Source of the DNA: Cyanobacteria bacterium auto_48_18
GTDB taxonomy: Bacteria > Cyanobacteriota > Vampirovibrionia > Obscuribacterales > Obscuribacteraceae
NCBI GenBank assembly: GCA_036170915.1
Contig: JAVHQC010000018.1
Coordinates: 1 to 64,000 of the forward strand
Length of the DNA stretch: 64,000 bases
Direction: 5' to 3'
Shown: piece by piece, positions 17,320 through 25,357 of the stretch
Position numbering within the stretch: the stretch's first letter is position 1
Layout: each line of letters starts with the position of its first letter
Program-made: the position numbers and the translations under genes
Notes under the pieces: generated by a model
The model's input: the letters and a program-made list of their open reading frames with translations, nothing else
What the model was told of the DNA's origin: nothing
Database searches by the model: none

Positions 17320-17619
17320 ATGAAAACGAAGAACGCAGTCGACGCCCTGGCGGCCTTGGCACAAGAATCACGCCTTGAAATTTTTCGCCTGCTGGTTAGA
17401 AAAGGTACTGATGGAATGGCGGCCGGCGATTTGAGCAGTCATTTCGGCATGCCACCAGCCACGATGTCATTCCATTTAAAGGAACTGACTAATTCAGGGC
17501 TGATTGTCTCTCGGCGCGAAAGTAGATCAATCATCTACTCAGCTGATTACGATCAAATGCAGGCGCTGCTGAGTTTTCTTGTGGAGAACTGCTGCGCAGA
17601 CAATGGAGGCAAATGCTAA
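17320..17619 (+). CDS. arsR: ArsR-family As(III)-responsive repressor
   Basis: LAALAQESRLEIFRLL, MSFHLKEL, C-terminal NCC...C. Confidence 0.9.
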   Translation: MKTKNAVDALAALAQESRLEIFRLLVRKGTDGMAAGDLSSHFGMPPATMSFHLKELTNSGLIVSRRESRSIIYSADYDQMQALLSFLVENCCADNGGKC

Positions 17620-18119
17620 TGAAAAGATTTCACGTACATGTGGCAGTGGCTAATCTGGCCGAGTCTATCAAATTCTATTCAACCTTTTTCAATACTAGCC
17701 CATCAGTGGAAAAAGATGATTATGCCAAGTGGATGCTCGACGATCCGCGCATAAATTTCGCCATCTCAACAAGAGATAGAGAGCCTGGCTTGGACCACCT
17801 TGGAATACAAGTAGAAGACGCAAGCGATCTCAAAGAGATTTCGCTACGTCTGCAGGCAGCGCAACAGCCCATTTTAGAACAGGAACAAACCACTTGCTGT
17901 TACGCAAAGGCAGATAAGACATGGGTGCACGATCCGCAAGGAATAGCCTGGGAATCGTTTTACACAACCGGTGTCGCAACAACTTATGGTGAAGATATAG
18001 ATTTGCAAGGTGAGAGCGAAAGTGCTTGTTGCGCGCCCGAACTAGCACAAAACGCAGCACCAGCAGTAATACCAAAAGTAATACCAGTACAAATCGCAAA
18101 GAAGGAGTGCTGCCAGTGA
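17619..18119 (+). CDS. arsI: ArsI/CadI glyoxalase-family protein (C-As lyase-like)
   Basis: KRFHVHVAV, YAKWMLDDPRINF, TCCYAKADKTWVHDPQGIAWE. Confidence 0.85.
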   Translation: MKRFHVHVAVANLAESIKFYSTFFNTSPSVEKDDYAKWMLDDPRINFAISTRDREPGLDHLGIQVEDASDLKEISLRLQAAQQPILEQEQTTCCYAKADKTWVHDPQGIAWESFYTTGVATTYGEDIDLQGESESACCAPELAQNAAPAVIPKVIPVQIAKKECCQ

Positions 18120-18532
18120 GGGCATCTCAAAAGAAAGTACTGTTTATCTGTGTGGAGAACAGCTGTCGCAGCCAGATAGCTGAAGGCTTCGCCCGTCAAC
18201 TAGGTATCGAAGCGGACAGCGCCGGCGTTAGGTCTGGAAGTGGCGTCAACCCTGACGCGGTTGCAGTTATGAAAGAAGCAGGTATCGATATATCGAAGCA
18301 ATTTTCTAAGGCAATCGACAACGATAAGCTTGACGATTATGACGCAGTGATTTCAATGTGCTCGGTCAAGACTGCTGATTTCTGCCCATCCACATTCATT
18401 GGCACCCAGGCAAACTGGAATATCGACGACCCGAAAGGATTACCGCTCGAAGAATTTCGGCGTGTGCGTGATCAGATTAAGGCCAAAGTGGAACAACTGG
18501 CTCAGGCCAAAGTCGCTGTAGATAGCAAGTAA
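18116..18532 (+). CDS. arsC: Arsenate reductase, LMW-PTP fold
   Basis: LFICVENSCRSQIAEG, WNIDDP; GTG start with AAGGAG RBS. Confidence 0.88.
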   Translation: MRASQKKVLFICVENSCRSQIAEGFARQLGIEADSAGVRSGSGVNPDAVAVMKEAGIDISKQFSKAIDNDKLDDYDAVISMCSVKTADFCPSTFIGTQANWNIDDPKGLPLEEFRRVRDQIKAKVEQLAQAKVAVDSK

Positions 18533-18566
18533 ATAAATAGCAAATGAACTATTTTGGGAGATAAGA

Positions 18567-18983
18567 ATGAAACTTCAAATATTCGATCCACCGATGTGTT
18601 GCTCAACAGGCATCTGCGGACCCGGCGTAGACCCAGCACTTGTAGAGTTCACCGCAGATCTCGATTGGTTAAAGCGTCAAGGAATTGAAGTAGAACGATA
18701 CAACCTTTCGCAACAGACACAAGTCTTCATAAGTAACACGACCGTTAGCGATGCGCTAAAGAAAGACGGCAACGAATGTCTTCCGCTTGTACTTCTCGAC
18801 GGAAAGATTGTGTTGCAAGGTACTTATCCTACGCGGGAAAAACTGACGGAAGTGACAGGAATCAAGACGTCTGAGACTGAGACCAAAAGTTCGCTCAACT
18901 TTACCGTTGAACAGCCATCCGTAAGTCCTGGATGCTGCGCTCCTTCGGCGCAAGACGAAGCGTGCTACGAGGACGCCCAATGA
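18567..18983 (+). CDS. arsD: Arsenite metallochaperone
   Basis: IFDPPMCCSTGICG, VERYNL, GTYPTRE. Confidence 0.93.
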   Translation: MKLQIFDPPMCCSTGICGPGVDPALVEFTADLDWLKRQGIEVERYNLSQQTQVFISNTTVSDALKKDGNECLPLVLLDGKIVLQGTYPTREKLTEVTGIKTSETETKSSLNFTVEQPSVSPGCCAPSAQDEACYEDAQ

Positions 18984-20755
18984 ATCTCGTTGATCACGCT
19001 ACAAAGTACATGTTCTTCACTGGCAAAGGTGGCGTGGGCAAAACCTCAGTATCGTGCGCGACAGCCATAGTACTTGCAGACAGGGGCAAACGAGTACTGC
19101 TAGTCAGCACCGATCCGGCCTCAAATCTAGATGAAGTGCTTCGTGTTGCTCTAAGCTCTACACCAACTGCAGTACCAGACGTTGTTGGCCTCGATGCGCT
19201 AAATATAGATCCTGAAGCTTCTGCACGAGAGTACCGCGAGCGTTTGCTCACGCCATATCGCGGTCTACTGCCTGAGGCCAGCTTAAAGAGTATGGAAGAA
19301 CAACTATCTGGTTCCTGCACTACAGAAATCGCCGCTTTCGATGAGTTTGCTCGCCTGCTCGGCGACGCCGAAAAGACTGCCAACTATGATCACGTCATTT
19401 TCGATACTGCTCCCACCGGCCACACCATGCGCCTTCTTTCACTGCCGAAATCATGGACTACATTTATCGAAGGAAATACAACCGGCACTTCTTGCCTTGG
19501 TCCACTTGCCGGTCTTCAGCAACAGCAAGACATCTATGCTTCATCTGTTCGAACGTTGATGGATGGTGCTCGCACAACCCTCGTGCTGGTATCGCGTCCA
19601 GAGCAAACGGCACTTAGAGAAGCCACAAATACAAGTGTGGAGCTACGAGAAATAGGTGTTGCCAATCAATGCCTCGTGTTGAACGGAGTGCTGACTGGTG
19701 ATAATACCAATGATGCCATTGGATCTGCTTTTGTAACTCGCGGACAGTCAGCCATTGAGGCCATGCCAAAAGAATTGAAGAGCCTTCCGACCCAAGAAAT
19801 ACTTCTCAATGCAAGACCACTAATTGGTATTGAAGCACTGCGCCGCATGTTCAAGCCGGAACTTTCAGTGACGGCTCAAGAACGACACTCAACCACTGAT
19901 GAACTTCCTCTGACGCTTCTGAACATTGTTGACGAGTTGGAGAAGTCCGGAAAGGGCGTGATCATGACCATGGGCAAAGGTGGCGTAGGCAAGACAAGCA
20001 TAGCTGCAGCAATCGCAGTAGAACTTGCGCGTCGCGGTCATCCGGTACATTTGAGTACAACAGATCCAGCTGCCCACATCTCCTGGGTGGTTGACGATCC
20101 GCTGCCGCTCCTGACCATTAGTCGCATCGATCCTGCCGCAGAGACCAAGGCATACCAAAATGAAGTTATGCAGAGCGCAGGCAGTAACCTTGATCAAGAG
20201 GGGCGCGCACTACTTGACGAAGATCTTCGTTCTCCTTGCACAGAAGAAGTCGCAGTCTTTAGAAGTTTTGCAAATGTGGTGGCAAAGGGACAAGCTGGCT
20301 TCGTGGTGCTGGACACGGCACCAACCGGACACACAATTCTCTTGCTGGATGCCGCCCAGGCGTACCACAAAGAAGTTTTGCGCCAATCGAGCAATATGCC
20401 CGATGCCGTGATCAACTTACTGCCACGACTGAGAGATCCTGAGTTTACGCGCATTCTAATTATAACTTTGCCGGAAGCAACTCCAGTTCACGAGGCCAAG
20501 CACTTGCAAGAGGATCTTGCCAGAGCAGATATTCACCCATTCGCTTGGGTCATCAATCAATCGCTCTCTCCGCTGCAAACAACAAATGCGATTCTGGTCG
20601 CGCGCCAGCAAAACGAAAAGATCTATATTGACGAAGTGAAACAACTTGCCAATCGCGTGGCCATAGTTCCCTGGCTACCGGAAGCACCAACGCATTCTTC
20701 GGGTCTGGTTAAATTGTTGGGGGGAAAAACTCCTTTAAAAAGCATGGCACTATGA
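18980..20755 (+). CDS. arsA: Arsenical pump-driving ATPase
   Basis: Two GKGGVGKT P-loops, two DTAPTGH motifs, GSCT/SCLG/SPCT. Confidence 0.95.
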   Translation: MNLVDHATKYMFFTGKGGVGKTSVSCATAIVLADRGKRVLLVSTDPASNLDEVLRVALSSTPTAVPDVVGLDALNIDPEASAREYRERLLTPYRGLLPEASLKSMEEQLSGSCTTEIAAFDEFARLLGDAEKTANYDHVIFDTAPTGHTMRLLSLPKSWTTFIEGNTTGTSCLGPLAGLQQQQDIYASSVRTLMDGARTTLVLVSRPEQTALREATNTSVELREIGVANQCLVLNGVLTGDNTNDAIGSAFVTRGQSAIEAMPKELKSLPTQEILLNARPLIGIEALRRMFKPELSVTAQERHSTTDELPLTLLNIVDELEKSGKGVIMTMGKGGVGKTSIAAAIAVELARRGHPVHLSTTDPAAHISWVVDDPLPLLTISRIDPAAETKAYQNEVMQSAGSNLDQEGRALLDEDLRSPCTEEVAVFRSFANVVAKGQAGFVVLDTAPTGHTILLLDAAQAYHKEVLRQSSNMPDAVINLLPRLRDPEFTRILIITLPEATPVHEAKHLQEDLARADIHPFAWVINQSLSPLQTTNAILVARQQNEKIYIDEVKQLANRVAIVPWLPEAPTHSSGLVKLLGGKTPLKSMAL

Positions 20756-21246
20756 AAATTCTAATTGCCATCGAAGACAAAATCTTTGGAGAAGCAATTG
20801 CGCAATTCGTTGGTAAAAGTAACTGGTTAGAAAATAGCAAGCTCAATCTTATTCATGTGACCGAACCGCTGCATTTGGACCCATTGTCAGGCTACAGCAG
20901 CGAGCAGCTCAGTGCGCTGCACGACCTCCGACATCGCGAAGGCAAAGCGCTGCTGGCATCAATAGGCACGCAGCTAAGCACTCTTCTTCCCAGCTGAACA
21001 ATTAACGAGGAGGTCCTTGATGGACGTCCGAAAGAAGTTATTCTCAACTACGCAAAAGACTGGCCGGCTGAGCTAATTGTACTGGGCTCCCATGGTCGCG
21101 GTGGTATCAGACAGTTCTTTCTTGGTAGTGTTTCCATGTCTGTACTGTCGGCGTCTCCCTGTTCAATACTGATAGTGAAGTTGCCACATTCTCAGGCTAG
21201 TGAAACAGGCAATGAGAAGCACTCAGGAGTTGCGAACAAGCAATAG
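20752..21246 (+). pseudogene. Universal stress protein interrupted by an in-frame TGA (20995-20997); pseudogene or recoded
   Basis: MKILIAI N-terminus; the frame continues after TGA as TINEEVLDGRPKEVIL...LIVLGSHGRGGIRQFFLGSVS...CSILIVK to TAG 21246. Confidence 0.8.
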
Positions 21247-21284: not shown

Positions 21285-21815
21285 CTATTTTGTCTGAACC
21301 TTTAAGTCGAGCGAAATTGCGCTGTTTCCAGGAACACAGCTATGCTTGCAAGCAAGCCATTTTGTGTCGGCTTTGATCTTCACAGAATCACCAGATCTCA
21401 AAAGCTTAGAAGGTGTGACCATTGTTGAAAGGCGCGCCTTCTTTGAGTATCCATATGTGACTATGCCATCTTCCTTAAAGGTTTCTGCGGGTGGCCAGCT
21501 TAGCGCCTGTGCCGTAAATCCTTTAGGTAGAGTCAAATCTACTTGCGTTGGCATTCCGCTTTGCCCAGGGTCTTTGTAGTAAATGTGCCACCCGGGCTGC
21601 ATGTCGAAGGTAACAAAAAGCTTGAAGGGCTTACCAGGAAAAATCACCTGTGAATCACTGCTGAGGGAAGCTTTGATTGGTGATTCCATCAATTTATTGC
21701 TCTGATTCTGCGCCAGACAAGATTGTGTTGAGAGCCAGATCGTTGCGCCCCAAAAAGTCAGTCCGGAGAGAACCATTACACGGAACGTGTTGTTCAAATA
21801 CTTCGCCTTTCGCAT
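21285..21815 (-). CDS. Exported DsbD N-terminal-domain protein
   Basis: Signal-like N-terminus, GWHIYYKDPG.SG.PT, WP.A, YGY, WLACKHSCVPG. Confidence 0.85.
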   Translation of the reverse strand: MRKAKYLNNTFRVMVLSGLTFWGATIWLSTQSCLAQNQSNKLMESPIKASLSSDSQVIFPGKPFKLFVTFDMQPGWHIYYKDPGQSGMPTQVDLTLPKGFTAQALSWPPAETFKEDGIVTYGYSKKARLSTMVTPSKLLRSGDSVKIKADTKWLACKHSCVPGNSAISLDLKVQTK

Positions 21816-21842: not shown

Positions 21843-22079
21843 CTATTTGCCTTTATCCTGTTCTCCATGCTCAATACTTTTTTGCTTCTCGCGTTGAATA
21901 GGAGTAGTCTTCTTCTGCTCGACCGAGCAGCTTTGCGACATTCACGTAGATATGCCGAGCTTCGGCAGTATCCAGAGTTGTAGGGCGAAGTAGAATAAAA
22001 CAATACCGACGAACCAGATCAAACTTTCCATAGAACTTTGCCCGCCTTTTGATTTTAAAACTTTTGTTGAGTCGCTCAT
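21843..22079 (-). CDS. Small single-TM membrane protein with in-frame TGA; putative selenoprotein (alternative start 22031)
   Basis: Manual translation MSDSTKVLKSKGGQSSMESLIWFVGIVLFYFALQLWILPKLGIST-TGA-MSQSCSVEQKK...KGK-TAG; fills the operon gap. Confidence 0.7.
21915..21930 (-). promoter_or_regulatory. Putative bacterial SECIS hairpin
   Basis: CUGCUC-GGUC-GAGCAG starting 11 nt after the UGA at 21944-21942. Confidence 0.65.
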
Positions 22080-22106: not shown

Positions 22107-23528
22107 TTATCTCGCCAGCACCGACGGTGGTGCGCTCTGCTCGGTCACAACTTCGTATCCTTGAGCAGTCCATGCGCTGGTTCCACCAACTATGTTGATA
22201 GAAGGCTTCAGTCCGCTTCTATCAATAACTCCCATAGCTATGGTCGATCGATAACCACTGGCACAGATCAGTGCTAGCTTAGTATCTGCAGGAAAATCAT
22301 TTATTCTTTCAGGCAGAATAGCCAGAGGAACATTGATTGCCTTCGGCACATGTCCATTTTCAAATTCCCCTGTGCGCCTTACATCGATAACTGTAATTTC
22401 CTCGCCTTGATCAAGCGTGCGCTTCAGTTCATCAACTGTCATAACAAGCGATTGCACCGCTTCGAATCCAGAGTTGCTCGAATCAGACATGCCATCTACG
22501 CCATCTACATAACCAACGACGGTTTCTAAACCAACGCGGGCCAATCTCAAAACGGCCTCATCGACGCTGACAACATCGTTTGCCAGGAGAATAATGGGAG
22601 TGCCAATAGGTATGAGCGTGCCGGCCCATGAGGCAAACTGTCCGCCCAATCCAATGTTCAGTGAACCCTTGATATGCGCTCCGGCGTATTCGACGGCACT
22701 ACGCACATCGAGCACTAACGAACCGCGTTGCATTTCCTTTGCCACCACAGCACCATCCAGGGGCTGGGGTCGAGTGAGGCTTTTTATTGGGGCCGCACCC
22801 TGGCGATTGATCTCCACATCTTTAGAGAAATAGGCAGGTACCTCAGGCAGGTCTGATGTCATCATTGCTATAAAAGACTCTTTTGACATAGGTTTCAACG
22901 CATAGTTGAACTTCTTCTCGTTTCCTATAGTTGACGATTTCTCGTCTGAGAGTTTCTTGCCGCAAAGAGAACCAGCTCCGTGAGCTGGATAGACTTCAAC
23001 CGCATCGTCCAGTTTAAGCAGTTTATTATGCAGACTCTCAAACATAAAACCGGCCATGTCCTGTGCCGAGTATACTTTTTCAGACACGAGGTCAGGCCGT
23101 CCCACGTCTCCGATGAACAGAGTGTCACCCGTAAACAGTCTTTCTGGAGTGCTCTCATCTGCTGTATCTTTGACGAGAATGCAAATGCTTTCAGGTGTAT
23201 GACCTGGTGTTTCAAGTATCAACAAATCCAACTTACCAACTTTCAATTGGTCACCATCACTGGTGGCTATATGCGGGAAAGTCGCGTTAGCCTTTTCGCC
23301 GAAAACAATCTGCGCCCCGGTTCTCTCGGCAAGCTCTCTATGTCCGCTGACAAAGTCTGCATGAAGGTGTGTTTCTAGAACGTACTTAATCGTCAGACCC
23401 TGTGCTTTGGCCTCCTCTATATATTGGTCCACATCCCGCTGTGGGTCTATAACTGCGGCTTCGCCTTCAGAACCGAGCAGGTAAGATCCATGAGCCAGGC
23501 ACCCGAGATAAAACTGCTTGAAAAACAT
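22107..23528 (-). CDS. MBL-fold persulfide dioxygenase fused to two rhodanese domains
   Basis: ETHLHADFVSG, TPGHTPE, FTGDTLFIGDVGRPD, PAHGAGSLCG, C-terminal CASGYRS. Confidence 0.9.
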   Translation of the reverse strand: MFFKQFYLGCLAHGSYLLGSEGEAAVIDPQRDVDQYIEEAKAQGLTIKYVLETHLHADFVSGHRELAERTGAQIVFGEKANATFPHIATSDGDQLKVGKLDLLILETPGHTPESICILVKDTADESTPERLFTGDTLFIGDVGRPDLVSEKVYSAQDMAGFMFESLHNKLLKLDDAVEVYPAHGAGSLCGKKLSDEKSSTIGNEKKFNYALKPMSKESFIAMMTSDLPEVPAYFSKDVEINRQGAAPIKSLTRPQPLDGAVVAKEMQRGSLVLDVRSAVEYAGAHIKGSLNIGLGGQFASWAGTLIPIGTPIILLANDVVSVDEAVLRLARVGLETVVGYVDGVDGMSDSSNSGFEAVQSLVMTVDELKRTLDQGEEITVIDVRRTGEFENGHVPKAINVPLAILPERINDFPADTKLALICASGYRSTIAMGVIDRSGLKPSINIVGGTSAWTAQGYEVVTEQSAPPSVLAR

Positions 23529-23552: not shown

Positions 23553-24299
23553 TTATTTGAAAAACTGATTTAATAACATCCAGGCTGACAAACCGAGCAG
23601 AGTAATGGCAAAGCTAACCTTTAGTTTTTCCTGCGGAATGTACTGCGCCAGGCCTCCAGCAATCGGAGCGGCGATCAGTGTGCCCAGGGCGAAAGGCAAG
23701 ATTGCCATAGACAGATTCAAGGTCGATCCGTACGAAATCGCCCCGACTAGGCTGTTAGTGCCGATCACTAACAGCGAGGTACCAATTGCCTTTTTTATCG
23801 GCACGTGCAAAACCAGAGTCAACGCAGGCACGATTATGAAACCGCCGCCCACACCAAGCAGACCTGTCAACAGACCCGCGCCAAGCCCGGTCAATAGCAT
23901 TAGCGGCAGCACATTAGACTGTGCTTTGCCGACCGCTTCGAGCTGAGGCTGACTTTGTCGCAACATAAGCAGCGCTACAAGAGCCATCGCCACTGCAAAC
24001 ATGGTCAACTGCACCACGTCTGAAATATGCTGCGCCAGGCGAGCACCAGCAAAACTGCCTATGGCTCCAGAAACTCCAAATATCAGTGCCGTCGAAACAA
24101 TAACTGAGTGATTACGGAAATGGCTCCAAGCAGCAAGCAAGCTAGCCAGTCCTACAATGATGAGGCTTGTACCTATAGCCGCTTTGGGTTGCATCCGAAG
24201 CATGTAAATCATTACCGGTACAGCTACGATGCTTCCGCCTCCCCCCAGGAGCCCAAGCAGGGTGCCCGTAGCAATTCCACATAGAGCGCCACCAAGCAT
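23553..24299 (-). CDS. TauE/SafE sulfite exporter
   Basis: Duplicated GLLGGGG/GVGGG..VP and AIGTSL motifs; hydrophobic. Confidence 0.9.
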   Translation of the reverse strand: MLGGALCGIATGTLLGLLGGGGSIVAVPVMIYMLRMQPKAAIGTSLIIVGLASLLAAWSHFRNHSVIVSTALIFGVSGAIGSFAGARLAQHISDVVQLTMFAVAMALVALLMLRQSQPQLEAVGKAQSNVLPLMLLTGLGAGLLTGLLGVGGGFIIVPALTLVLHVPIKKAIGTSLLVIGTNSLVGAISYGSTLNLSMAILPFALGTLIAAPIAGGLAQYIPQEKLKVSFAITLLGLSAWMLLNQFFK

Positions 24300-24317
24300 C
24301 AAGTCACCCTCCTTGCA

Positions 24318-24890
24318 TTAAGAGCAACAATCGTCTTTGCGACTCTTGGCTGGGACTGATGTAATTTCTATTTTGTTCCAAGGGGCTTTACCCAGAATAA
24401 TTCCTAAAGCGCAAGTTCCAGACAAACCGGCAAAGGTTAGACCCATCCCAAAAATTCCAGGAATAATTAGAAACCATGGACTGATGAAGACAGCGAGAAG
24501 AACGCCCGTCAAGACTCCAAGGCCAACGACAAGCTGAATCTGACGTTCAATCGATAGCATCTTTTTGCCTTCCACAATAGGCAAGCCTGCCTTGCGCCAC
24601 GCCACCAGTCCACCTTCCAGAACTTCTGGCTGAAAGCCTTTGCCTAAAAGGGTATAAGCGCCTCGTTCGGCTCTTTTGCCTAATCTACATATGACGACAA
24701 GTTTCCCCTGACGGGGCAATTCTTCGCAGCGAGCATCAAGCTCGCTGAGCGGCACGTTTAGCGATTTAGCAATGTGTTCAGCCTCAAATTCAATAGGGCT
24801 GCGAACATCTAGCAGCACAGCTTCAGCAACATTCGCTGCCAGGCTATTAGGCCTTATTTGTCGGCAAACACTAGCAATAAGTTCTGTCAT
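24318..24890 (-). CDS. Rhodanese plus DUF2892 (YgaP-like) membrane protein
   Basis: LLDVRSPIEF..HI, CRLGKRA, LEGG..AW, SIERQIQ...GLTFAGLSGTC...PWN. Confidence 0.88.
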   Translation of the reverse strand: MTELIASVCRQIRPNSLAANVAEAVLLDVRSPIEFEAEHIAKSLNVPLSELDARCEELPRQGKLVVICRLGKRAERGAYTLLGKGFQPEVLEGGLVAWRKAGLPIVEGKKMLSIERQIQLVVGLGVLTGVLLAVFISPWFLIIPGIFGMGLTFAGLSGTCALGIILGKAPWNKIEITSVPAKSRKDDCCS

Positions 24891-24921
24891 AGATAAAATC
24901 CTCGAGTGCAATTGAATTCAC

Positions 24922-24987
24922 TATATCACCAATTGGTTATATAACGAATCAACCATTCGATTGATTGAAGAATCAATCGGATGGTTG
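24922..24987. promoter_or_regulatory. Palindromes in the divergent promoter region
   Basis: TATATCACCAATTGGTTATATA (24922-24943) and CAACCATTCGATTGATT-GAAG-AATCAATCGGATGGTTG (24950-24987). Confidence 0.6.
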
Positions 24988-25018
24988 TAGACTGAGATCG
25001 GGAACTACTGGATTTTTT

Positions 25019-25357
25019 ATGAAAGACAAAAACAAACTGCTGTCTCGACCGGCTCTCGAAATTGTTGCTGCCCGCTTTCGGGCTCTTTCTGATGCTTCCA
25101 GATTGCAAATACTGCAATACCTGTTTAAAGCAGAGCATTCGGTGCAGGAGTTGTGCGAGTTAAGCGGCATGAGCCAGGCAAACGTGAGCAAGCACTTGTC
25201 TGTGCTGGCAGAGCAGGGAATTGTTCAAAAACGGCGACAAGGATTATATGTGTTCTATAGCATCGCAGACAGCAGCATCTACGAGCTGTGCGATATTGTC
25301 TGCGGTGCCGTAGGGAAACGCTACGGACAAGTGATGAAAGAATTCTCTGGACGCTAG
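25019..25357 (+). CDS. ArsR/SmtB-family repressor (BigR/SqrR-like by context)
   Basis: FRALSDASRLQIL, SQANVSKHL, C-terminal LCDIVC; divergent from the sulfur operon. Confidence 0.85.
   Translation: MKDKNKLLSRPALEIVAARFRALSDASRLQILQYLFKAEHSVQELCELSGMSQANVSKHLSVLAEQGIVQKRRQGLYVFYSIADSSIYELCDIVCGAVGKRYGQVMKEFSGR

Follow-up and report, generated by a model that had tools for sequence, protein, structure and literature searches.

SELENOK and SELENOS each comprise one membrane helix, a disordered cytosolic tail, and one selenocysteine (Sec), which lies near the C terminus, with the SECIS element located in the 3′ UTR. The SECIS hairpin of E. coli fdhF starts 11 nt past the UGA and presents GGUC in its apical loop, and the small DUF2892/YgaP-like membrane proteins of sulfur-handling operons have a G-I-S-T-C end similar in appearance to the motif described below. 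According to the accessible parts of the respective sources, SELENOS forms an internal selenenylsulfide (PMC10298544), the S. aureus cst operon has the order tauE-cstR-cstA-cstB (PMC12934615), and DUF302, a domain without an assigned function, occurs in sox clusters (PMC5037610). Small proteins of the family studied here have been predicted as selenoproteins in supplementary data since 2008 and were later dropped from tables. The host gene described here joins this predicted, uncatalogued family, and what is new is the breadth of the family, its operon setting, and its fusions.

A small gene with an in-frame TGA in a persulfide operon

We analyzed a 64,000-nucleotide stretch of DNA, all of which we call the window. 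Translation of 22079-21843 on the minus strand with TGA read as U yielded 78 aa with a single TGA at codon 46, past which the frame runs 32 codons to a TAG. The sequence-only reading had placed an ORF outside the ORF track in the gap between the persulfide dioxygenase (PDO)-rhodanese and DsbD_N genes, with a transmembrane helix ahead of the TGA. We found the frame exactly there, on the same strand as both flanking genes (22107-23528 and 21285-21815) and missing from the ORF list (table 11, 60 aa), and the TGA=U translation and hydropathy bore out the helix and the 32 open codons. The elements of the gene are as follows.

21843..22079, minus strand: predicted gene for a small single-helix membrane selenoprotein, 78 aa from ATG 22079 or 62 aa from ATG 22031, the latter probably used
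21966..22022, minus strand: transmembrane helix at residues 20-38 (numbered in the 78-aa form), supported by hydropathy and the AlphaFold helix; charge bias suggests N-out and C-in
21942..21944, minus strand: in-frame TGA, inferred Sec from translation and homologue comparison, directly after a conserved LP-x-x-G-x-x-T turn
21927..21929, minus strand: second Cys (U-x4-C), probably resolving, with its codon within the hairpin stem
21915..21930, minus strand: predicted bacterial SECIS-type hairpin of 6 bp with a GGUC loop 17 nt past the UGA, from folding, a synonymous-recoding test, and covariation

Because the second ATG (22031) aligns with the start of most homologues, a 62-aa protein with Sec at position 30 is the likelier product. 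Hydropathy reached a maximum of 2.3 across residues 20-38 of the 78-aa form, indicating a single helix. AlphaFold returned one long helix (residues 2-25), with low confidence in the Sec region (pLDDT 57-70) and no mechanistic information. Basic residues lie C-terminal to the helix in 79 of 91 Cys-form homologues; under the positive-inside rule, this charge bias would place the Sec in the cytoplasm, and the tail most likely faces the same side. The predicted product would be a protein of 62 (perhaps 78) residues with one helix, a Sec right at the membrane surface followed five residues later by a Cys, and then a disordered charged tail. Promoter and terminator scans gave no signal above chance level, and no RNA sequencing runs covering the locus were listed. 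The sole DNA run fully covering the locus, which may be the source of the assembly, contained no alternative letter at the TGA sites.

The neighboring genes form a persulfide-detoxification operon, as the sequence-only reading had described, with a divergent regulator gene next to it.

24965..25357, plus strand: divergent ArsR/SmtB-family regulator with an inferred BigR-type role, scoring below the BigR cutoff
24318..24911, minus strand: rhodanese with a YgaP-like membrane anchor, the first gene of the operon
23553..24302, minus strand: TauE/SafE sulfite exporter family gene
22107..23528, minus strand: persulfide dioxygenase-rhodanese fusion directly upstream, with a metallo-beta-lactamase fold and two rhodanese domains, CstB-like by architecture
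21285..21815, minus strand: stand-alone DsbD N-terminal domain protein, directly downstream

On the plus strand at 17320-20755, the window also holds an arsenic-resistance cluster (ArsR, an ArsI/CadI-type enzyme, arsenate reductase, ArsD, and ArsA, after a SulP permease), and such a cluster also lies beside the same operon in relatives. A universal-stress-protein-like ORF at 20752-21246 (plus strand) is broken by a TGA at 20995-20997, followed by 82 more open codons. Since no paralogue stops there and the hairpin loop starts without a G, this TGA is probably a nonsense mutation and not a Sec codon.

Sec machinery and genetic code of the host

The host genome encodes selB, selC (tRNA-Sec), and selD, which adjoins yedF, and selA was not found in the assembly, which is 86% complete. 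Two genus mates carry selA just past a conserved gene for 735-772 residues upstream of an elongation-factor/ribosomal cluster, and 13 of 14 genus mates have selA. Because host contig C27 starts within this conserved gene and the genes beyond it are absent too, selA probably falls in an assembly gap. The Sec machinery is present apart from selA. No molybdopterin enzymes such as formate dehydrogenase were found in the host genome. On one contig of the host genome, G000 (C33:15652-16458 and 164122-165603), we also observed two tRNA arrays of nine genes each, as in mobile tRNA clusters.

A genome-wide code change in which TGA encodes Trp or Gly could also produce an open frame, and Trp does stand at the site in 23 of the top 150 database clusters described below. 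In the host, TGA terminates 616 of 2,318 open frames of at least 300 codons, by which a code change is largely refuted. TGA being a normal stop in the host, decoding at this site must be site-specific recoding. Furthermore, the only TCA-anticodon tRNA found was tRNA-Sec, and the residue aligned with the TGA in continuous homologues is Cys. We regard the probability of a code change as negligible.

Homologues and the codon at the TGA site

We searched for homologues in 41 related genomes, which are kin and not independent. A clean TGA form was present in 21 of them, of which 19 have selA and the remaining two (G000 and G012) have tRNA-Sec; none of the 13 other selA-less genomes among the 41 contained a true homologue. 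At one further locus (L027:1560-1650, in G020), the TGA and hairpin are intact and one extra base just upstream shifts the frame, marking either a pseudogene or a sequencing error. Weak matches in G031, G032, and G014:C62 did not hold up as homologues on inspection. In L034 (G019) and L139 (G086), G-G-G replaces x-x-T before the Cys or TGA.

Beyond these relatives, a GTDB scan gave at least 502 confirmed places in species-level genomes. The best 79 of the 502 loci comprised 80 sites, with TGA at 77, TGT at 2 (one at a contig edge), TGC at 1, and TAA or TAG at none. A profile search recovered 1,380 protein clusters at 50% identity. In the top 150 of these, the protein had Cys at the site in 91, ended exactly there in 23, had Trp in 23 and R, S, G, or L in 6, and fell outside the search pattern in 7. 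From the protein records alone, we would attribute the Trp and R/S/G/L cases to gene calling under an alternative code and to single-base errors.

Three samples of 201 genomes each were taken around other carriers. In the first phylum sample, 19 genomes carried the family and all 20 matches had TGA; selA was present in 18 of these 19 carriers (base 153/201), and the last had selB. The second contained 24 carrier genomes, 16 with the TGA form and 8 with the Cys form, and selA was found in 14 of the 16 and 7 of the 8, respectively (base 119/201). The sample around a Desulfobacteraceae record, from the richest phylum, contained the family in 88 genomes and TGA at 86 of 93 matches, with 6 matches ending near the site and 1 weak match with TAA (G798). 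The TGA-form loci L170 (G521) and L175 (G545) come from genomes with selD in which selA, selB, and a convincing tRNA-Sec were not found, possibly due to loss of Sec decoding, which may be recent, or to incomplete assembly.

A 250-genome sample of the host's own phylum, without other members of families f1 or f2, gave no match. A word-index protein search returned three truncated relatives only, a metagenome scan with one Cys-form protein found 3 true homologues among 26 loci, and the ESM Atlas offered one cluster without a name at 0.89, which is a lead only. Neither a PDB sequence search nor a plasmid search found a relative. Source databases call members hypothetical and cut the TGA forms.

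These comparisons bear on whether the TGA is simply a true stop, leaving a 29-residue membrane peptide, with the following ATG starting a separate peptide or the hairpin acting as a regulatory RNA. At 88 of 110 distinct TGA sites, the next codon is indeed ATG, and two TGA-form genomes lack detectable selA/selB. However, a true stop should drift to TAA or TAG, which occurred at none of the 80 sites in the best 79 of 502 loci, 91 Cys-form clusters among the top 150 of 1,380 run through the site, and no ATG comes next at 22 of the 110 TGA sites. Together with the hairpin analysis below, we consider a true stop very improbable.

Among the 110 distinct TGA sites, 102 have a Cys within 4-6 residues of the TGA, in agreement with the proposed U..C redox pair as a common feature. 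The pair is not universal, since the 8 remaining sites belong to a subfamily with T-U-A/M-V-P and no second Cys. The Sec is thus the invariant residue.

A SECIS-type hairpin accompanies the TGA forms

The hairpin that the sequence-only reading had pointed out, starting 11 nt past the UGA with a GGUC loop, was recovered at 21930-21915 with an 11-nt spacer, 6 bp, and -8.0 kcal/mol when folded alone. The fold energy of the 65-nt region is ordinary (z -0.64), and of 195,354 TGA triplets in the genome, 403 (0.2%) pass a strict hairpin rule and 3,696 (1.9%) pass a loose one (a stem of at least 4 bp, a folding energy of -4 kcal/mol or lower, a G within the first two loop nucleotides, and 16-37 nt). 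Because energy alone is unremarkable, which would also suit a true stop, the case for the hairpin rests on conservation.

By the loose rule, 103 of 110 distinct TGA sites have a hairpin, whereas redrawn synonymous codons would give 31. At Cys sites, the corresponding figures were 3 of 13 versus 3.3 expected. A further set of 30 loci contained the hairpin in 27 versus 4.1 expected. In 16 sequences picked for a common stem register, 99% of stem cells are paired, with both-sided changes at 2 of 6 pairs. The hairpin of L170 (G521) is weak. Hairpin occurrence therefore follows the TGA forms and not the Cys forms, as judged from these sequence comparisons, which argues against a true stop at the site.

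These findings, along with the Sec machinery of the host and the alignment of TGA with Cys, support the proposal of a small membrane selenoprotein, and the TGA is very likely decoded as Sec. On comparative evidence, SelB would almost certainly bind the in-frame hairpin, with Sec inserted at the UGA. Each of the refuting conditions named in the sequence-only reading came out in its favor: Sec machinery exists in the genome, the aligned codon in homologues is TGA or a Cys codon and not TAA or TAG, and past it the second Cys and the hairpin are kept. We hold it highly probable that this unannotated selenoprotein gene is real, with recoding and family assignment as predictions. The suspicion that annotators would truncate or miss the gene also proved justified: database entries end at the Thr that precedes the TGA. 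Gene callers cut the protein at 29 residues or miss the gene, and restoring the family corrects selenoproteome counts. With this gene, predicted use of Sec also reaches the non-photosynthetic sister class of cyanobacteria, on whose Sec use our literature search found no paper.

Gene neighborhoods, fusions, and possible function

We scanned neighbor ORFs for the best 79 of 502 loci (131/163). Next to the family gene in 34 of these loci lies a rhodanese-type, TauE, or CoA-reductase gene in the same orientation; 33 of the 34 represent a closely related operon type and one an Acidobacteriota record. The operons of close relatives add a CoA-disulfide-reductase/rhodanese gene. In the phylum richest in the family, the 30 best loci (94/109 ORFs scanned) showed no rhodanese or dioxygenase neighbors, and most neighbors were unrelated. 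The persulfide link is, by gene context, lineage-specific, and the persulfide-operon setting that had been proposed is present here and largely specific to Obscuribacterales.

Fusions provide further leads. We observed three fusions to thioredoxin, as well as Cys forms fused to DUF302 at four Pfam-confirmed loci and a fifth cut by a contig end. Outside Obscuribacterales, rhodanese, YeeE, TauE, dioxygenase, or DUF302 neighbors recur at L093, L124 (rhodanese plus YeeE), L139, L179, L184, and L212. In L184, an ECF sigma factor gene is followed by the order thioredoxin-gene-DUF302-rhodanese, and L212 has the order ArsR-gene-DUF302 and L125 ArsR-gene-thioredoxin. The persulfide operon and the thioredoxin and DUF302 fusions are the first functional leads for this 60-residue protein, which is easy to synthesize and test.

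Considering these neighbors and fusions together with the topology, the protein may be a membrane-anchored selenol/thiol relay for sulfane sulfur, a possibility to which we give slightly less than an even chance. At the membrane, the selenolate would attack a persulfide, polysulfide, or disulfide, and the nearby Cys would resolve the product to a selenenylsulfide or pass the sulfur onward. Thioredoxin or the CoA-disulfide-reductase/rhodanese enzyme would recycle the relay, which in the host would supply the rhodanese, persulfide dioxygenase, and TauE exporter encoded on the same transcript. A more specific and more doubtful version is that the selenol picks up sulfane sulfur on the cytoplasmic side of the membrane for transfer to rhodanese, DUF302, or persulfide dioxygenase, with thioredoxin recycling the selenol, and that the family is among the most widespread bacterial selenoproteins. 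If true, bacteria would have their own version of the single-helix SELENOK/SELENOS design, and persulfide detoxification would gain a component so far missing.

The same neighborhoods could reflect a general thiol-disulfide helper of thioredoxin/CcdA/DsbD systems acting in oxidative or disulfide stress and recruited to the persulfide operon only in Obscuribacterales. The three thioredoxin fusions are consistent with such a role, as are the order thioredoxin-gene-CcdA in L115 and L141, CcdA near L207, L211, and L233, a peroxiredoxin/rubrerythrin near L220 and an AhpD-like protein near L221, the order of an ECF sigma factor with a zinc finger, thioredoxin, and the family gene in L184 and L192, and the DsbD_N gene adjoining the host gene. 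However, the sulfur-handling and DUF302 neighbors listed above recur outside Obscuribacterales too, and a disulfide helper overlaps with a sulfane-sulfur relay in that the chemistry is common to both. We view a general helper of this kind as possible and rather unlikely.

The arsenic-resistance operon 1-5 kb off in the window raises another explanation, in which the Sec/Cys pair binds soft metals or metalloids (As, Cu, Hg, or Cd) and buffers the ions or hands them to exporters. Genes for ArsA, Acr3-type, P-type ATPase, and RND efflux proteins recur in Obscuribacterales loci, but they are mostly on the opposite strand or more distant. The fusion partners are thioredoxin and DUF302 and not metal domains, and to our knowledge U-x4-C is not a usual metal motif. 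Metal binding therefore appears improbable, and we favor the sulfane-sulfur relay as a working proposal.

A second candidate selenoprotein family

The host genome also contains a second candidate selenoprotein family of about 360 aa with a signal-peptide-like start and the motif G-x-T-U-S-A-G-N-S-L-R.

G000 C16:90909-92045 (L193:1910-3046), plus strand: second-family paralogue
C22:55264-56436 (L194:1765-2937), minus strand: second-family paralogue
C22:441504-442340, minus strand: third second-family paralogue

Both inspected paralogues have the same hairpin type. The family occurs in 26 of the 41 related genomes with 2-5 matches each, and nearly every full-length match has one in-frame TGA. 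A conserved in-frame TGA in a 360-aa family thus points to UGA read-through across the lineage. We detected no Pfam or NCBIfam match for the family, and its motif was not found in the deep-Sep Table S1 or Data S1 (covering part of the long entries only). The second family may be more novel than the small membrane selenoprotein. If the proposed relay is true, the two families would together be a main reason that Obscuribacterales keep Sec machinery.

Comparison with described families and systems

Our initial candidate interpretation of the family as undescribed was rejected because supplementary data already list its sequences with Sec. These sequences are listed as known selenoprotein, and we matched them to the family by eye. 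They share its size, one hydrophobic helix, and LP-[KR]-[LM]-G-[IV]-x-T followed by U, usually M, and a Cys 4-5 residues on, and one of them nearly matches homologue L106 across the core, again by eye. The host gene has the same features of one helix, LP-x-x-G-x-x-T-U, a Cys 4-5 residues later, and about 50-70 aa. The published sequences derive from marine reads and 20 test genomes of that paper, and none was seen from Vampirovibrionia. No account of the family's function, gene context, fusions, or SECIS came up.

The family does not appear in Table 1 of the 2026 review (119 prokaryotic selenoprotein families), in the deep-Sep Table S1, or in the accessible portion of the 2022 review tables, and the available parts of BSepDB, Peng 2016, and the Haft 2022 preprint contained nothing on it. 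The families of Haft and Tolstoy 2025 are covered by the 2026 table and by NCBIfam, and neither gave a match. No Pfam or NCBIfam model matches any examined member, and NF049942 misses the locus. We found no description of the family in main-text literature; bioRxiv supplements or Haft and Tolstoy 2025 may mention it.

Identity with DUF2892 (PF11127) was rejected, as members of a 26-sequence alignment gave no matches even at E 10. DUF2892/YgaP-like proteins have two helices, whereas the present family has one.

The hairpin matched no Rfam SECIS family. It falls within all four limits stated in the accessible part of the published bacterial SECIS model (PMC13188914, Fig. 2A) and shares with the SECIS consensus, as given in the portion of the source available, a G-G-U apical loop of 4 nt, a 6-bp stem, a loop 17 nt past the UGA, and -8.0 kcal/mol. 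Relative to bacterial in-ORF SECIS elements, the stem register and sequence of the present family vary among phyla.

The operon shares an ArsR-type regulator, rhodanese, TauE, and a dioxygenase-rhodanese fusion with cst/BigR operons, for which the part of PMC12934615 available mentions no small membrane selenoprotein or DsbD_N gene. Finally, the family resembles SELENOK and SELENOS by analogy, with no sequence link found, and differs from them in that its Sec lies next to the membrane and its SECIS lies inside the ORF.
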